Shown piece after piece: positions 48,064-58,838 of a stretch of 64,000 nt of DNA (position 1 is its first letter; the number at the start of each line of letters is the position of its first letter). Below the pieces are notes generated by a model that worked only from the letters and a program-made list of their open reading frames with translations, searched no databases and had not been told where the DNA came from. The DNA lies in contig JABLTJ010000014.1 of the NCBI GenBank assembly GCA_013166775.1, positions 32,001 to 96,000 on the forward strand, read 5' to 3'. The position numbers and the translations under genes are program-made. Source of the DNA: Promethearchaeati archaeon (GTDB lineage Archaea; Asgardarchaeota; Heimdallarchaeia; Heimdallarchaeales; Heimdallarchaeaceae).

Positions 48064-49494
48064 TTAGTATTTTATTTTTTTCCACATTTTCTTAGCTGAT
48101 TTATTCCCTCCATAACCGAGTAATCTACCAATGTAAGGCCAAATAGGATTCAAGAAAGGAAGGTTCATAACTATCCAATTAGCGATTTTATGAGGCCATG
48201 TATACACATGATTATACTCACAATCTGAGATACAATTTGAGCAATCTCCACCATTTTCTAACCAGAATAGATAGCAAGTTTCAACATCTATATACCACTT
48301 CTTCACTCCAGGATTGTTACTTACACTGTAGGTTTTGTAAGATGTTTTTTTATCAAATGGTATAGAAGCACTTGGACACTTATCAGCACAAGTCATGCAT
48401 GTTTCGCAGAATTTCTCAACGGATTTAGCAAATTTGTAATCTGGTTTATCTGCAACTAAAGGCATGTCGGTTAGTATCTTAGCAACTCTCACTCTTGGTC
48501 CATATTTCTTTGTAATCAGCAGTCCATGTCTTCCAAATCCTCCAAGTCCTGCTTCTATAGCTAAAGGTACTGATAATCCAAGAGAATTACCTGCTGGAAT
48601 TGCTTCATATCCTAGGTTCTTAATAAAACTAGCTACTAGAGTTCTAACAAAAGCTTGTTTTGAATAACCTAAACCAGTCGCTATTCCACTTGGCATTTTT
48701 GGTGAAGTATTTATCGCATTGAAATCCATTTCAACTGCAATTACAACAGCGAATTTGATATCTTTTGAAATAACATATTCTCTGTCCATTCTATCATGAG
48801 AGTAAATCCACTTTGTGTCAAAAGGTGCAATTCCTACGAGATTAGCTCCATAAAGAATTGCTATTTTCTTAAGGAATTTGGTCATCTCTTCTGGATCTTC
48901 AACCTTGTATTTTTGTGGTTTCTGTATATCATAATTTACTAGATCCATTTCTCCTTTCTGCTGCTGCTCTCTCATCTTTTTAGAATCTTCTTTATTGAGA
49001 GTCTTGATTCGATCGGTCATAAATTCCCTCATCGAAACCATGTTTTCTATTGACCAAGCTGCATCAACAGCTGCACTTTCTAGTTCAGAGTATCCATCTA
49101 AACCTTGAGCAGCTCTTTCAGATGCTTTCTCAAAAATAGGTTTCTTGTATCCTTCAAAATCTTCATCCCACATTCTTCTTGAAAAAATCGTTAATTTTTC
49201 ATTGAAAGATTCATAAACATCTGCATTTATCTCAAAAATCTCTTTCTTTTTTTCGTTAGTTTTCAAGATCTTTGGTGTGATTCGTTTTTTATCATCTATC
49301 TCTACTTCAATTGCTTCAAAAGGGCAAACATAAACACATTGTAAACAGTTAATACAATTCTTATGATTTATTTCTGCGATTTCTTTTTCTATTTTTATCG
49401 CTATTTTTCCTTTTTTATTTTGGGGACAAACATCTACGCATTCATGTTCGCATTTATTTGGAGAACAGATTTTCTCTAAAATAAGAAGACTCAT
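48064..49494 (-). CDS. Reductive dehalogenase-like cobalamin/Fe-S protein with N-terminal RLI-type ferredoxin domain
   Basis: YGANLVGI, AGLGGFGRHGLLIT..GPRVR..ILTDMPL..DKP, FCETCMTCADKCP, C...DCSNCISDC; N-terminal CSPNKCEHECVDVCP and CINCLQCVYVCP; no Tat signal. Confidence 0.85.
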   Translation of the reverse strand: MSLLILEKICSPNKCEHECVDVCPQNKKGKIAIKIEKEIAEINHKNCINCLQCVYVCPFEAIEVEIDDKKRITPKILKTNEKKKEIFEINADVYESFNEKLTIFSRRMWDEDFEGYKKPIFEKASERAAQGLDGYSELESAAVDAAWSIENMVSMREFMTDRIKTLNKEDSKKMREQQQKGEMDLVNYDIQKPQKYKVEDPEEMTKFLKKIAILYGANLVGIAPFDTKWIYSHDRMDREYVISKDIKFAVVIAVEMDFNAINTSPKMPSGIATGLGYSKQAFVRTLVASFIKNLGYEAIPAGNSLGLSVPLAIEAGLGGFGRHGLLITKKYGPRVRVAKILTDMPLVADKPDYKFAKSVEKFCETCMTCADKCPSASIPFDKKTSYKTYSVSNNPGVKKWYIDVETCYLFWLENGGDCSNCISDCEYNHVYTWPHKIANWIVMNLPFLNPIWPYIGRLLGYGGNKSAKKMWKKIKY

Positions 49495-52566: not shown

Positions 52567-52736
52567 TTGAACCAATCCAACATTACAGATTTTATTCATT
52601 TAAAAATCTTGTTTACCTTTACTTCAAAACATAGTTCTTTTGCAGTATAATGAAAATCTAATTTGAAATCTGTAAATAATTGCATAAAAATCATTGCAAG
52701 GATATACTTATATTTCGCACATTCTTCTTTAGAATT

Positions 52737-53636
52737 ATGATTCGCATAGTAACAGATAGTGCTTCAGACATTCCTTGGGATTTTGCAAAGGAAAACAAGA
52801 TCAAAGTTGTTTCTTTGTATGTAATGGTTCATGATGAAGTGTTAGTGGAAGATGAAAATTTCAATCGAGAGAGCTACTATAAACTCTTCGAGGATGAAAA
52901 AGCTTTCTTTAATATTCCAAAACTAAATCTCTATTCATTTGTGCCCAAAACATCTCAACCAAATCCACAGGATTTCACAAAAGCTTATCTTGAGCTGATA
53001 GAAGAAGGAATTAAAGAAATAATCGTTATTAACGTAACAGCGGGATTAAGTGGAACAATAAATAGCTCAAATTTAGCTGCAAAACAGATAATGAGAAAGA
53101 ATAAGGATGTAAAGATTCATATAATTGATGCAAAATCAGCTTCTTATCCTGAAGTTTTACTAATTAGAATAGCTCTAAAATTAATAAAGAAAGGATATAA
53201 TGGAGAGAAGATTGCAGAGATTCTTCGAGAACAAGCAATTAAAATTAAGACAGTTATTCTCTTACCCACGTTGAGATATCTCTGGAAAGGAGGAAGATTG
53301 GGAACTTCAAAATTCGTATTAGGATCGATGCTAAGAAAGAAACCAATTGTCACAATGACTGAAGAAGGAAATGTAATAACTGTAGGATCAGCTAGTGATG
53401 TAGAAAGTGGATTAAAAGAATCTTTACGATTGAGTACTGATGATTATACAAAAGAACCAAAAGCAATTACTATTGTCTATGGTAGTAGTTTAGAATACGC
53501 AAACCTATGTTCAGAAATAATCAAAGAAAAATATCCAAAGATGCCTATAGAAATTGCTCAAAGTGGAGGTTCAGTCTTATCTCATCTTGGACCTGAATCT
53601 ATTGGTGTAATTTCAGATTTTACTGATGAATTCTAA
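52737..53636 (+). CDS. DegV family (FakB-like) fatty acid-binding protein
   Basis: IVTDSASD, KTSQP, LSGT, KGGR, SHLGP; start ATG 52737. Confidence 0.92.
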   Translation: MIRIVTDSASDIPWDFAKENKIKVVSLYVMVHDEVLVEDENFNRESYYKLFEDEKAFFNIPKLNLYSFVPKTSQPNPQDFTKAYLELIEEGIKEIIVINVTAGLSGTINSSNLAAKQIMRKNKDVKIHIIDAKSASYPEVLLIRIALKLIKKGYNGEKIAEILREQAIKIKTVILLPTLRYLWKGGRLGTSKFVLGSMLRKKPIVTMTEEGNVITVGSASDVESGLKESLRLSTDDYTKEPKAITIVYGSSLEYANLCSEIIKEKYPKMPIEIAQSGGSVLSHLGPESIGVISDFTDEF

Positions 53637-53741
53637 ATAAAAATCTCTAGCATATTTAACATTTTCTTCTATTATTTCGCTTTTTTCTTTTTTGAATGAG
53701 TAAAACTAAAATATTGCTTTGTAATATATTATTCGTTAATA

Positions 53742-54764
53742 ATGAAAAGAGTAGGTTTACCTCGAGCACTAATTCACTATAAGTTTTCTGAATTATGGAT
53801 ACCATTCTTTAAGGAACTTGGTGCTGAGGTAGTTATCTCACCTTTAACAACAAAGAAAATAAAAGATATTGCAGTTAGGTCAGCACCAGATGAAGATTGC
53901 TATTCAACTAAACTTTATTTTGGTCATGCTTTGGTTCTAAAAGATAAAGTAGATTATTTATTCATTCCACGTTATGGGGGTTACCATAAAAATAAGGTTG
54001 GGTGTCCTAAGTTTATTGGTTTAGCAGAAGTCTTAAAATCAATGATTCCTAATTTACCTCCTATTATTATGCCTCATTTTAATCGAGCGAAAGGTGGAGA
54101 TCCAAGAAGAATTTTACTAAAACGTGCTTTTGAGGTTGGATTAATATTCACAAAGAATCCTTTCAAGATTTTTCGAGCGATTAAAAAAGCTTTCAAGGCT
54201 TTTAAGGAACACAAAAGAATTTTAATTATTGATGAAGAAACTCTTCATAAATGGGAGCTTTCAGAAATAATCCTAAATGATTTTCCTTTATACAAGGATA
54301 ATGAAAGACAGCTTAAGATAGCTTTGGTTGGGCATTCTTATGTTCTGAATGACCCATATTCCTCACTAGACATAAGATCGATTCTTAAAAACCACGGTAT
54401 AGATATTATTACTTCTGAACAAATGCCAAGAAGATTGATTGAAGAACAAATGGGAAAATTAGAGAGCGATCTTTATTTTGAATATGAGAGAGAAATTCTT
54501 GGGACAATAATGTATTTTCTTGAAAACAAAACTGTTGACGGAATTGTACATCTTATGATATTCAGTTGTGGTCCTGATTCTATTGCAGGTGAACTTGCTG
54601 CAAGATTATCCAAAAGACATCCTACTATTCCTCTCTTACAATTGGTATTTGATGAGTTGACAGGAGAAGCTGGAATGAGAACAAGAATAGAAGCGTTTGT
54701 TGATATGTTAAGAAGAAGTGAAGCAGAGCAAGCTATTCTTCTAACAACAAAAATTCACATCTAA
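53742..54764 (+). CDS. Acyl-CoA dehydratase activase-related protein (DUF2229 plus HgdD-like C-terminus)
   Basis: VGLPRAL, CYSTKLYFGH, CPKFIGL, FSCGPD, DELTGEAGMRTRIEAF. Confidence 0.88.
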   Translation: MKRVGLPRALIHYKFSELWIPFFKELGAEVVISPLTTKKIKDIAVRSAPDEDCYSTKLYFGHALVLKDKVDYLFIPRYGGYHKNKVGCPKFIGLAEVLKSMIPNLPPIIMPHFNRAKGGDPRRILLKRAFEVGLIFTKNPFKIFRAIKKAFKAFKEHKRILIIDEETLHKWELSEIILNDFPLYKDNERQLKIALVGHSYVLNDPYSSLDIRSILKNHGIDIITSEQMPRRLIEEQMGKLESDLYFEYEREILGTIMYFLENKTVDGIVHLMIFSCGPDSIAGELAARLSKRHPTIPLLQLVFDELTGEAGMRTRIEAFVDMLRRSEAEQAILLTTKIHI

Positions 54765-54779
54765 AGGAGCAAAAAAGAA

Positions 54780-55868
54780 ATGTCACTTTCCTTTCCATAT
54801 CTGGGAACCTTTAGTTACGTAGTAGAAGCAATAGCGAAAGGAATGAACAGAAAGGATATTATTCTTCCACATGAACCTACATACAAAACCAAGCAACTAG
54901 GTTCTCGTCATGCTTCAGAGTTTGTATGTACTCCATTCAAAATGCTTCTTGGATCATTGATTGAGGTATTAGATCGAGGAGCATATCAGATAATTTTTAC
55001 TTTGTTTGTAGATTTTTGTAGATTAGGTTACTATTCTCCACTTTTCAAGTTAATTTTAGACGATCTTGGATATGATTTTGAATTAATTGATCTAGATTGG
55101 CAGAACAAACCTGAATTCTTTAGAAATTTCAAAAAATTGACAGGAGATTTGAGTGCTTGGCAAGCTTTTCAAGCATTTCGAGTTGGTTGGATAAAGAATA
55201 GATATATCGACTATACAGAAGAATTACAATTTAGTTATGGGGCAATTGAAGTAAACAAAGGATCAACAAGAAGAGTAGCAAAAAAAGCATTTAGACTAAT
55301 TGTAGAGACAGAAAGAATGAGCAATATCAGAAAACTCCCTGATGTTGTTAAAAAAATGTTTGAAAATGAAGTTGAAATTGATAAAAAAGCAAATCCACTC
55401 AAAATAGGAGTAGTAGGAGAATTATATGCAGTTGTTGAACCTGCAATAAATCTTCACATCATGAAACGTTTGAATGATCTTGGTGTAATCACCTATACCC
55501 CAATCACTTTTACTCGATGGATAGATTTGGGAAAAAGATTGAACTTCTTCAAGAAACATCATCATAAAGAAGCAGTAAAGAGAGCAAAACCTTACTTAGA
55601 ATATCGTCTTGGAGGAAAAGCACAAGAATCTATTGGGAGTGCAATTTTGTATAAGGAAGAGGGATGGGATGGAATGATACACCTATATCCATTTACTTGC
55701 ATGCCAGAAATCATCTCAAGGAGTATACTACCACAGGTTAGTAAGGAATATGATTTTCCTATTCTATCTCTTGTATTAGATGAACACACTGGTGAAGCTG
55801 GTTTACAAACAAGATTAGAAGCTTATGTTGATTTACTTGATCGAAAGAGAAGAGGAGATTTTAAATAA
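54780..55868 (+). CDS. 2-hydroxyacyl-CoA dehydratase/reductase-like subunit (COG3581-type)
   Basis: CTPFK, CRLGYY, KIGVVGELY, PFTCMPE, DEHTGEAGLQTRLEAY. Confidence 0.88.
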   Translation: MSLSFPYLGTFSYVVEAIAKGMNRKDIILPHEPTYKTKQLGSRHASEFVCTPFKMLLGSLIEVLDRGAYQIIFTLFVDFCRLGYYSPLFKLILDDLGYDFELIDLDWQNKPEFFRNFKKLTGDLSAWQAFQAFRVGWIKNRYIDYTEELQFSYGAIEVNKGSTRRVAKKAFRLIVETERMSNIRKLPDVVKKMFENEVEIDKKANPLKIGVVGELYAVVEPAINLHIMKRLNDLGVITYTPITFTRWIDLGKRLNFFKKHHHKEAVKRAKPYLEYRLGGKAQESIGSAILYKEEGWDGMIHLYPFTCMPEIISRSILPQVSKEYDFPILSLVLDEHTGEAGLQTRLEAYVDLLDRKRRGDFK

Positions 55869-55889
55869 AAAGAAGAATGAGGTTATGAA

Positions 55890-56870
55890 ATGACTCAAAG
55901 TGTAGAAAGGTATTATTTGGGAGTAGATGTTGGTTCCATCAGCACAAATTTAGCAGTGATTGATCAATCAAAAGAATTAATAGATTCAGTCTATTTAAGA
56001 ACAGAGGGTAGGCCTGTAAATTCTGTGCAAAAAGGAATAAAGTTAATGAGAGATAAAATTGGAGAGGATCTCGATATTTCTGGAGCAGGATCAACAGGAA
56101 GTGCTAGAAAATTGACCGGAGTAATTGTAGGAGCTGATATAGTAAAGAACGAAATTACCGCTCATGCGTTAGCTTCTTTGCATTACAACCCAGATATTCA
56201 GACAGTTATGGAAATAGGGGGGCAAGATAGCAAAATAATAATCATTAGGAATAGCATTGTTGTAGATTTCGCGATGAATACTGTTTGTGCAGCTGGGACA
56301 GGTTCATTCTTAGATATGCAAGCAAGTAGATTGGATATTCCAATTGAGAATTTTGGAAGACTGGCATTAAAATCAGAAAATGCTGTTTCTATAGCTGGAA
56401 GATGTACTGTATTTGCTGAAAGTGATATGATTCATAAGCAACAACTAGGTCATCCAACAGAAGATATCATCAAAGGTTTATGCGAAGCACTTGCACGAAA
56501 TTATCTAAATAATGTTGGAAAAGGAAAGGATATCAAACCACCAATCATGTTTCAAGGTGGAGTTGCTGCAAATGCTGGTATGCGAGAAGCTTTCGAAAAA
56601 TATTTGGAAAAAGAGATTCTAATTCCTGAATATTATGATGTAATGGGAGCTATCGGGGCAGCAATTCTTGCACAGGAAGATAAAGAAAGAAAGAAAAAAC
56701 ATACAGATTCAAAATTCTTTGGATGGGACATTCCAGATATGAAGTTTAATACAACAGGATTTGAGTGTGATGGTTGCCCTAATATCTGCGAAATTGTTGA
56801 GATTCGTAAAAATGAGGAGTTAATTGCTAGATGGGGGAGTAGATGTGGAAAATGGGATGTAGCAGATTAG
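55890..56870 (+). CDS. ATP-dependent [4Fe-4S] activase (BadF/BadG/BcrA/BcrD, HgdC-like)
   Basis: GVDVGS, NEITAH, EIGGQDSK, CAAGTGSF, CTVFAES, QGGVA; C-terminal CDGCPNIC...GSRC. Confidence 0.93.
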   Translation: MTQSVERYYLGVDVGSISTNLAVIDQSKELIDSVYLRTEGRPVNSVQKGIKLMRDKIGEDLDISGAGSTGSARKLTGVIVGADIVKNEITAHALASLHYNPDIQTVMEIGGQDSKIIIIRNSIVVDFAMNTVCAAGTGSFLDMQASRLDIPIENFGRLALKSENAVSIAGRCTVFAESDMIHKQQLGHPTEDIIKGLCEALARNYLNNVGKGKDIKPPIMFQGGVAANAGMREAFEKYLEKEILIPEYYDVMGAIGAAILAQEDKERKKKHTDSKFFGWDIPDMKFNTTGFECDGCPNICEIVEIRKNEELIARWGSRCGKWDVAD

Positions 56871-57743: not shown

Positions 57744-58838
57744 TCATCTCCAGTCAAAATAAAATGATTCGATTTCCTCAGGTATTGGAATATTTTTTAA
57801 GTTAAATAAATCTAAATTGACTTTGTTTTCAAAAAAGAAGAATTTAGCCTTTTTCAAAGGTTTCATATCAAAGTAAGGAATGTAAGGTGTCTGTAAACCA
57901 AACCATCCCTTTTCTTTTGATTTCTGACACAGATAATTTGATAAATTAGTAGCTTCTTTTACATTCAACCTATGAATATGAACCATATCGAGCCAGCCAT
58001 AGGGAATCTTATTTCCAAGTCCTGCAAGGAGAAATTCCCAAGCTAATATAAAACCTTGAACCTTTCCATTTTTGTCTTCATGTACAACACAAACTACATG
58101 TGGATTTTCCAACATCCATTTTAAATCATCAAGTTCGGGAACTATAGATAATTGATTTCGTTCTACTTGCTCTTGGATAATCTCATATATGTCAGGTATG
58201 TCTTTCTCTTGAAAAGCTCTTATCTGTTTTGAATCAATGATTTTATACTTTTGAAAGAACTTGAAAACTAGTTTTTCGTACCATCTTAGTCTGACTACTT
58301 TAGATACAGTATTTACATCAAAAGCTTTGATAACAAATTTGTTCAGAGTAACTACTCTTTGGAAAGGTAAATTCATCTCCCTGGATACGGAAGTAGAGAC
58401 ATCGACACCATGTTGATCTGGCTCGTGGAAAGAGAAACCTCCATGATAATCACTTGATATTCCAATTTCCCATAGCTTTAAACCCATCCTTTTAGCAAGA
58501 CCTTTTCTCTGATGATCAGAATGTACACACAACCAAGACGGAATAGCAAAATTGTAAACCTTCCCCATAATTGAGAGATTTCTAGGAATTGAGCCTAAGA
58601 ATCCAACCATTTTTCCTGTTGGCTTATGGATAGCTCTAATGAAAAGATCCTTGTCAACAGAAGGAGCGCCGTACATAATGTTGAAAGTATCTTCTGAAAA
58701 AGCAACTGTCGCACCTTCTTTTAAGGCATTTTCATCATTTACAAACGCTTGAGTAATTAATTTGGAGAATTCTTCAAATTTCTCTTTCTCAATAGTAAAT
58801 TGTTCAATGAGATAATCATCAGAGTTTTTACTTATCAA
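57744..58838 (-). CDS. Double-GNAT acyltransferase resembling N-myristoyltransferase
   Basis: KMVGFLGSIP..., WLCVHSDHQRKGLA, IRAFQEKDIP, EDKNGKVQGF; two GNAT halves. Confidence 0.75.
   Translation of the reverse strand: MISKNSDDYLIEQFTIEKEKFEEFSKLITQAFVNDENALKEGATVAFSEDTFNIMYGAPSVDKDLFIRAIHKPTGKMVGFLGSIPRNLSIMGKVYNFAIPSWLCVHSDHQRKGLAKRMGLKLWEIGISSDYHGGFSFHEPDQHGVDVSTSVSREMNLPFQRVVTLNKFVIKAFDVNTVSKVVRLRWYEKLVFKFFQKYKIIDSKQIRAFQEKDIPDIYEIIQEQVERNQLSIVPELDDLKWMLENPHVVCVVHEDKNGKVQGFILAWEFLLAGLGNKIPYGWLDMVHIHRLNVKEATNLSNYLCQKSKEKGWFGLQTPYIPYFDMKPLKKAKFFFFENKVNLDLFNLKNIPIPEEIESFYFDWR

Follow-up and report, generated by a model that had tools for sequence, protein, structure and literature searches.

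PlsA and Ger are the only DUF2229 enzymes that have been characterized, and both reduce lipid esters (PMC13159169, PMC12838417). PlsA/PlsR is CPE1194/1195 of Clostridium perfringens, and a single-gene PlsA is found in E. faecalis, L. cremoris, and B. longum (PMC12838417, PMC9702350). The published plsA-plsR of C. perfringens strain 13/HN13 is described as a pair of open reading frames (ORFs). PlsA and Ger are not yet separable by sequence (PMC13274423). Homologs of Ger have been described in Lokiarchaeota, including P. syntrophicum, and in Heimdallarchaeota (Sahonero-Canavesi et al., PMC13159169). Here, we describe a three-gene cassette encoding two reductase-like subunits, Red1 and Red2, and an activase, at positions 53742-56870 of a 64,000-nucleotide stretch of DNA from a Promethearchaeati archaeon of the Heimdallarchaeaceae (assembly GCA_013166775.1, contig JABLTJ010000014.1, positions 32,001 to 96,000). 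The whole stretch is referred to as the window. We consider it likely that the cassette is self-contained and encodes a three-component, oxygen-sensitive Fe-S radical enzyme of a split DUF2229 subfamily, of which the DegV gene directly upstream forms no part and for which a substrate class can be proposed by analogy. This reading is based on the gene content, conservation, fold, Cys ligands, and phylogenetic position of the cassette, and on its lack of linkage to DegV.

The assembly is 3.85 Mb in size, has a GC content of about 33%, and is 88.7% complete; the window lies on its contig C16. An archaeal 16S rRNA was found in the assembly, and public records name homologs of the cassette proteins Heimdallarchaeota or Asgard, which agrees with the archaeal host assumed in the initial annotation of this DNA. 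That annotation described four co-directional genes (DegV, a DUF2229 subunit, a second subunit, and an activase). Domain matches confirmed all four at their positions, in the order DegV-Red1-Red2-activase on the plus strand. The intergenic gaps are 105 bp between DegV and Red1, 15 bp between Red1 and Red2, and 21 bp between Red2 and the activase.

Red1 (53742-54764, plus strand) is a DUF2229-type catalytic subunit. Its DUF2229 match (E 4.8e-41) extends across the full domain, and an HGD-D match is present in the C-terminal 75 residues. Red2 (54780-55868, plus strand), the paralogous second catalytic subunit, gave weak matches to DUF2229 (27.1 bits, under the cut-off) and to HGD-D. The two subunits show about 30% identity over 200 residues in the C-terminal half. 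In both of them the PF06050 match is restricted to the last ~65-75 residues, and a full-length HGD-D domain is absent. The pairing of Red1 with Red2 is a textbook case. Three Cys residues of Red1 (C53, C88, and C276) are invariant in alignments of split and fused relatives, including the C. perfringens paralogs described below, and its tail carries the motif D304..G311..T314-R315-x-E317-A318. Red2 has exactly three Cys residues (C50, C80, and C307), which are invariant across 14 split and fused sequences, the C. perfringens and Asgard fused forms among them.

The AlphaFold2 (AF2) model of Red1 has a pLDDT of 93.5. When it was compared with known structures by Foldseek, HadC (3O3M_B) was the top match, and HadC, BzdNO (8S02), DCCP (7YYL/6ENO), and MbdON (9G87) were all matched with a probability of 1.0 and a TM score of about 0.5. 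By sequence, the similarity of Red1 to HadC in the PDB is marginal (E 0.11), and a sequence search of the PDB found no DUF2229 protein. Red1 is thus predicted to have the catalytic subunit fold of the HadBC/BcrBC/DCCP type.

The third gene (55890-56870, plus strand) encodes an HgdC-type ASKHA activase composed of a single domain and a C-terminal four-Cys module. The BcrAD_BadFG domain (PF01869, E 5.8e-51) covers residues 8-264, and the score to TIGR00241 is 185.5 bits against a cut-off of 125.4. The protein aligns with the HgdC structure 1HUX (E 5.2e-37), and its C133 and C172 correspond to C127 and C166 of HgdC. In HgdC, these two Cys residues bridge one [4Fe-4S] cluster in the homodimer. The single domain of the window activase and the positions of its two Cys residues are consistent with the homodimer suggested in the initial annotation. 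The CxxCxNxC...RC motif noted there is also present, as C293-x2-C296-x-N-x-C300...R318-C319. This four-Cys tail (Cx2CxNxC...C) is common to the activase and to the segment that follows the second activase domain (Act2) of the fused proteins, including both C. perfringens paralogs. The solved HgdC/HadI activators, with 270-276 residues, are too short to hold it.

Because of the alignment of the activase with HgdC, the Cys triads, the fold of Red1, and the shared four-Cys tail, the cassette is assigned to the DUF2229 branch of the BCR/HAD superfamily, which also holds PlsA/PlsR and Ger. As the initial annotation had proposed, the domain set, in which DUF2229 is combined with another reductase-like subunit and with an activase that carries the four-Cys module, is of the type found in the PlsA/PlsR/Ger branch.

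The three genes behave as a unit. Red1, Red2, and the activase are kept together in 19 of 20 related Asgard loci, drawn from the same genus, family, class, and phylum, and the flanking regions vary. Homologs of Red1 are present in 176 of 399 Asgard genomes. The cassette is also carried by the cultured P. syntrophicum and L. ossiferum, the Red1 proteins of which are 58-63% identical to that of the window. Neighbour families that recur among 21 loci are an ABC transporter, a DUF134 helix-turn-helix protein, LVIVD, TPR, NIPA, radical SAM, H+-PPase, and pyridine-nucleotide oxidoreductase.

Upstream of the cassette, a DegV/FakB-family fatty-acid-binding protein is encoded at 52737-53636 (plus strand). 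Its open frame extends to a TTG at 52680, and the ATG at 52737 yields the usual MIRIVTDS start. The DegV domain scores are above the curated cut-offs (PF02645, E 2.5e-55 and 188 bits against 27; TIGR00762, 207.5 bits against 99.7), and the score to the FakB1 equivalog NF038249 is 111 bits against a cut-off of 350. The 105-bp spacer that follows (53637-53741, plus strand), as read from the sequence, has an oligo-T run and then an AT-rich stretch, which might represent a terminator of DegV and a separate promoter of the cassette.

The initial annotation coupled DegV with the three genes as one module, in which DegV would deliver acyl chains or lipids and the reductase would make vinyl or alkyl ethers. 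DegV does adjoin the cassette in the same direction; genes for the handling of fatty acids are numerous in the genome (15 DegV genes including that of the window, five PlsY-like genes, and two Dak2-domain ORFs of ~220 aa each, which might supply a FakA kinase partner); PlsA and Ger act on lipid esters (PMC13159169); and a different split clade is linked to acyltransferases, as described below. Nevertheless, such a module is very unlikely. DegV does not adjoin the cassette in any of the 20 related loci, either by tblastn or with a hidden Markov model (HMM) made from the genome's own DegV paralogs. Orthologs of the window DegV (74-81% identity) in five genomes of the same genus are always on another contig than the cassette. 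Furthermore, in two of the same-genus genomes (L089 and L091), the block formed by the reductive-dehalogenase-like, MBL, IMPDH, and DegV genes and, further on, w59569/w60705/w61753 is syntenic with the window and contains no cassette. The T-run in the spacer also speaks against one module, and chance adjacency to a DegV is unremarkable since the genome has 15 of them.

The distributions of DegV and the cassette across the Asgard genomes differ as well. DegV is restricted to the class of the window (71 of 399 genomes, many of them with several copies). In the Loki-type families f19 and f20 it is found in 0 of 14 and 0 of 134 genomes, whereas Red1 homologs are present in 14 of 14 and 111 of 134; that is, 125 genomes have Red1 homologs and DegV is seen in none of 148. 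Conversely, there are families without the cassette that do have DegV, for example f4 (DegV in 12 of 12 genomes, Red1 homologs in 0 of 12). Since the two relatives keep the guaB-DegV block in synteny but have no cassette in it, the adjacency results from a recent relocation of the cassette, in this species, into the guaB-DegV neighbourhood. DegV is part of that ancestral neighbourhood, not a conserved partner of the cassette. A second type of cassette (Red1 of ~400 aa), with a DegV gene 5 kb away in one genome of family f7, was considered and dropped; its four loci have no common neighbours.

Two other genes of the window should be mentioned. One, at 48064-49494 on the minus strand, encodes a member of the reductive dehalogenase family (TIGR02486, E 4.4e-59) that has a ferredoxin domain for two [4Fe-4S] clusters at its N-terminus; this gene adjoins an MBL-fold gene and guaB, an arrangement kept in relatives of the same genus. 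The other, at 57744-58838 on the minus strand, encodes a GNAT-fold protein of 364 aa that is matched best in Pfam by the myristoyl-CoA:protein N-myristoyltransferase N-terminal domain (E 3.1e-10). In the relatives, no such gene was found next to either the cassette or DegV.

The relation of the cassette to PlsA and Ger was examined through Red1. A search of representative proteins gave 2233 relatives, each representing a cluster, with 379 of these clusters at E<=1e-30 and 1186 at E<=1e-10. Apart from a few short fragments, the best 150 relatives are either split, with a length of 300-390 aa, or fusions of Red1 with Red2 of ~700-770 aa, and the 1400-aa form does not occur among these 150. Two full-length single-ORF paralogs of the BBD architecture (B, PF01869; D, PF09989), 1414 aa and at least 1436 aa in length and mutually 60% identical, were obtained from C. 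perfringens strain s008 (L095 and L096), a genome reached through a diagnostic primer; either of them may correspond to CPE1194/1195. The window Red1 shows 24-25% identity to both (E 1e-13 to 1e-17). Judged on these paralogs as a proxy for Ger, it is below both homolog criteria of the literature, namely E<=1e-50 with at least 30% query coverage (PMC13159169) and E<=1e-30 with >30% identity (PMC13274423). It should be noted that the coverage required in PMC13159169 is reached by fused proteins only, because the split subunits have 340-360 aa.

Three trees of Red1 were made, one of them under a site-heterogeneous model, without the validated Ger of T. maritima or D. alkenivorans, the PlsA of E. 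faecalis, or other validated single-gene PlsA. In all three, the Red1 domains of the fused BBD proteins (the two C. perfringens paralogs, the Asgard fused forms, and the bacterial fused forms) form one clade with SH-aLRT values of 99-100, and the window Red1 is outside it. The latter is within an Asgard split clade of 17-18 rows, also with a support of 99-100. The cassette is therefore placed by its sequence in a separate split subfamily, outside the fused PlsA/Ger-type clade. The resemblance to PlsA/PlsR and Ger claimed in the initial annotation holds as far as the shared branch, the domain types, and the Cys residues are concerned; it does not extend to membership of the fused clade, and a closer, fused gene is present on contig C14 of the same genome.

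Some records in this part of the family carry unexpected labels. RLG15207.1, labelled Pacearchaeota, sits in a cluster of at least 90% identity formed by fused proteins of Heimdallarchaeaceae, and the Asgard clade of the window Red1 contains records that bear the labels Bathyarchaeia and Zixibacteria and share 65-66% identity with that protein. Such records stem either from mis-binning of contigs or from recent transfer, and some of the "DPANN" homologs of Ger in the literature may be of the same kind.

The fused protein on C14 (L008:4122-8303, minus strand) has 1393 aa in the order Act1-Act2-DUF2229-Red2. With the P. syntrophicum fused protein (QEE14272.1) it shares 57% identity, and its reductase half shares about 40% with the bacterial fused forms. 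To the C. perfringens paralogs the whole protein shows 26-29% identity (E 1e-94 to 1e-95), the alignment being nearly full length with one and covering about three quarters with the other. The window Red1 is 24% identical to this protein of its own genome. Orthologs of the fused protein occur in 51 of 399 Asgard genomes, and in 0 of 134 in family f20. From these comparisons, it is a nearer PlsA/Ger candidate than the cassette, and it is of the type for which Ger homologs in Asgard archaea are on record (PMC13159169).

In addition, contig C75 holds two further Red1/Red2 pairs (L009:4212-7718 and L010:4677-7987), neither of them with an activase, and another Red1 fragment is on a 1.8-kb contig. 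The C75 pairs are 60-67% (Red1) and 45-58% (Red2) identical to those of the window. The activase domains found in the entire assembly number three, that of the window and two in the fused protein, so the window activase is the only stand-alone one found in the genome. Since there are three Red1/Red2 pairs and one such activase, it probably serves all three split pairs. At a locus of a relative (L066), one activase is flanked by two Red pairs. A gene for CDP-archaeol synthase is located ~3 kb upstream of the second C75 pair.

The neighbours of the C75 pairs bear on the possibility that the cassette and its paralogs are dehydratases or reductases of amino-acid-derived acyl-CoA or 2-hydroxyacyl-CoA, working in peptide fermentation like HgdAB/HadBC. 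Both pairs adjoin class I/II aminotransferase genes, with peptidase genes (M1-like and DUF5700) near; HadC is the best structural match of Red1; and the stand-alone single-domain activase resembles HgdC/HadI. The aminotransferase neighbour, however, is kept in only two of six same-genus loci of the first pair (C75a type) and is absent from the one locus checked for the other, and this linkage was dropped as a clue. No CoA-transferase or 2-hydroxyacid dehydrogenase was seen in the flanks of the window, beside the paralog pairs, or among the recurrent neighbours of the 20 scanned loci. Moreover, both the four-Cys tail of the activase and the DUF2229 domain place the set with the PlsA/Ger branch, and the HGD-D match is limited to the end of the protein. 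Grouping with the classic 2-hydroxyacyl-CoA dehydratases, which the initial annotation had set against its own lipid proposal, was not seen, the sequence match to HadC being as marginal as stated above. A fermentative role is considered unlikely on these grounds.

For the preferred reading, a self-contained radical enzyme, a mechanism is proposed on the model of HgdC/HadI, HadBC, and PlsA/Ger. In it, the activase would form a homodimer bridged by one [4Fe-4S] cluster through C133 and C172. Its hydrolysis of ATP would push a low-potential electron into a heterodimer of Red1 and Red2, each of which would hold a cluster on its three Cys residues. A ketyl radical would then arise when this electron reduces the carbonyl of the substrate, an ester or a thioester, and C-O cleavage or reduction would follow. 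The same activase would probably also drive the two other Red1/Red2 pairs of the genome.

As for the substrate, a different split clade is informative. In the Loki-type families f20, f16, and f17 (L098-L103), Red1, Red2, and the activase of this clade lie in a conserved co-directional operon together with one or two PF01553 (PlsC-type) acyltransferases and an HAD phosphatase, in seven of the seven loci examined. The gene order Red1-Red2-Act is the same as in the window, and the activases are 53-56% identical. In contrast, the Red1 proteins are only 33-37% identical and belong to separate clades, and the window clade has no conserved neighbour. This operon is a better-defined candidate lipid operon than the window locus. 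The loci in f16 and f17 additionally hold a LarA-like gene.

Because that clade shares an operon with PlsC-type acyltransferases, and because lipid esters are what PlsA and Ger, the only characterized DUF2229 enzymes, reduce, our leading single guess for the substrate of the cassette is a glycerolipid fatty-acyl ester, although it is offered tentatively. Amino-acid-derived acyl-CoA seems an unlikely substrate, and the rest of our expectation goes to something else. Conversion of ester lipids to ethers by the cassette, as first proposed, is possible.

Several points weigh against the reading of the cassette given here and, above all, against its lipid part. When the ORF clusters of the 21 loci are compared with Pfam, window-type cassettes have no conserved neighbour that relates to lipids or CoA or is otherwise informative, and no PF01553 acyltransferase was found in the genome, which is 88.7% complete. 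In the trees, the fused clade joins on long branches, so that its exact attachment is uncertain, and the relation of the window clade to the acyltransferase-linked clade is left unsettled. Finally, when the lipids of the one Asgard Lokiarchaeota representative in culture were first analyzed (Imachi 2020), those seen were archaeal only, although the method might have missed ester lipids (PMC13400652). P. syntrophicum, the organism of that analysis, has both the cassette and the fused gene.

It might also be supposed that the split enzyme acts on another carbonyl compound or small molecule, as DCCP does, and is unconnected with both lipids and amino acids. In favour of this are the size and diversity of the split family, as indicated by the cluster counts given above, and the place of DCCP among the top fold matches of Red1. 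The contexts of distant split homologs are heterogeneous: a Thermoanaerobacter locus, in which the Red pair is surrounded by genes for a sugar ABC transporter and amylase, and two loci on metagenome contigs were uninformative. Yet nothing positive points to any particular substrate of this sort, and the three-Cys sets match the single clusters of the HAD type, the double-cubane Cys pattern not having been sought beyond these. A substrate of this kind is regarded as highly improbable.

A wider proposal would see in the split cassette a second reductase of lipid esters that is widespread among the Asgard archaea and in which one activase serves three Red pairs, each pair differing in its lipid substrate. 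In combination with the fused Ger-like protein and with an acyl-phosphate route through FakB (DegV) and PlsY, it would yield non-isoprenoid fatty-alkyl ether lipids. This proposal is decidedly doubtful. If it were true, Heimdall archaea would have a mixed membrane, with a bearing on the change from archaeal to bacterial lipids during eukaryogenesis. It is an open question of the "lipid divide" whether ester or ether lipids built on fatty acids are made by Asgard archaea, the closest known relatives of eukaryotes. The DegV neighbour found here says nothing on that question, and this neighbourhood does not support the ether-lipid pathway that was proposed from it. Better candidates are the published fused Ger-like gene, the acyltransferase-linked Loki-type operon, and the split cassette itself, for which the cultured P. 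syntrophicum and L. ossiferum are tractable systems. The split single-activase subfamily is large and uncharacterized, and the substrate of any one member would annotate thousands of genes.

The cassette can be compared with several known systems. Like PlsA/PlsR, it combines a DUF2229 Red1 with a second Red domain, each with three conserved Cys residues, and has an ASKHA activase followed by the Cx2CxNxC...C module; both systems presumably carry out ATP-driven Fe-S radical chemistry. Unlike PlsA/PlsR, it is made up of three separate proteins and has one activase domain instead of two tandem BcrAD_BadFG domains (BBD). The same holds for Ger of T. maritima and D. alkenivorans (PMC13159169): the Pfam types are shared (B, D, and an H tail, PF06050), but Ger has the fused BBD... 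architecture. The Bacillota have extra PlsA homologs without an activation domain, the role of which is called "unclear" (PMC13274423), and the genome studied here likewise has Red-only proteins beside a fused PlsA/Ger-type gene. The cassette differs from these homologs in that one pair is encoded with its own single activase, an arrangement conserved across Asgard genomes.

In its three-protein layout and its stand-alone single-domain activase with two cluster Cys residues, the cassette resembles HgdC/HadI with HgdAB/HadBC (1HUX, 4EHT, and 3O3M), and the predicted fold of Red1 is HadC-like. In contrast to HgdAB/HadBC, its Red subunits are of the DUF2229 type with only a C-terminal trace of HGD-D, and the activase has the extra four-Cys tail. 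The cassette is accordingly best described, from its sequence, as a split variant of a known enzyme kind with a predicted function.

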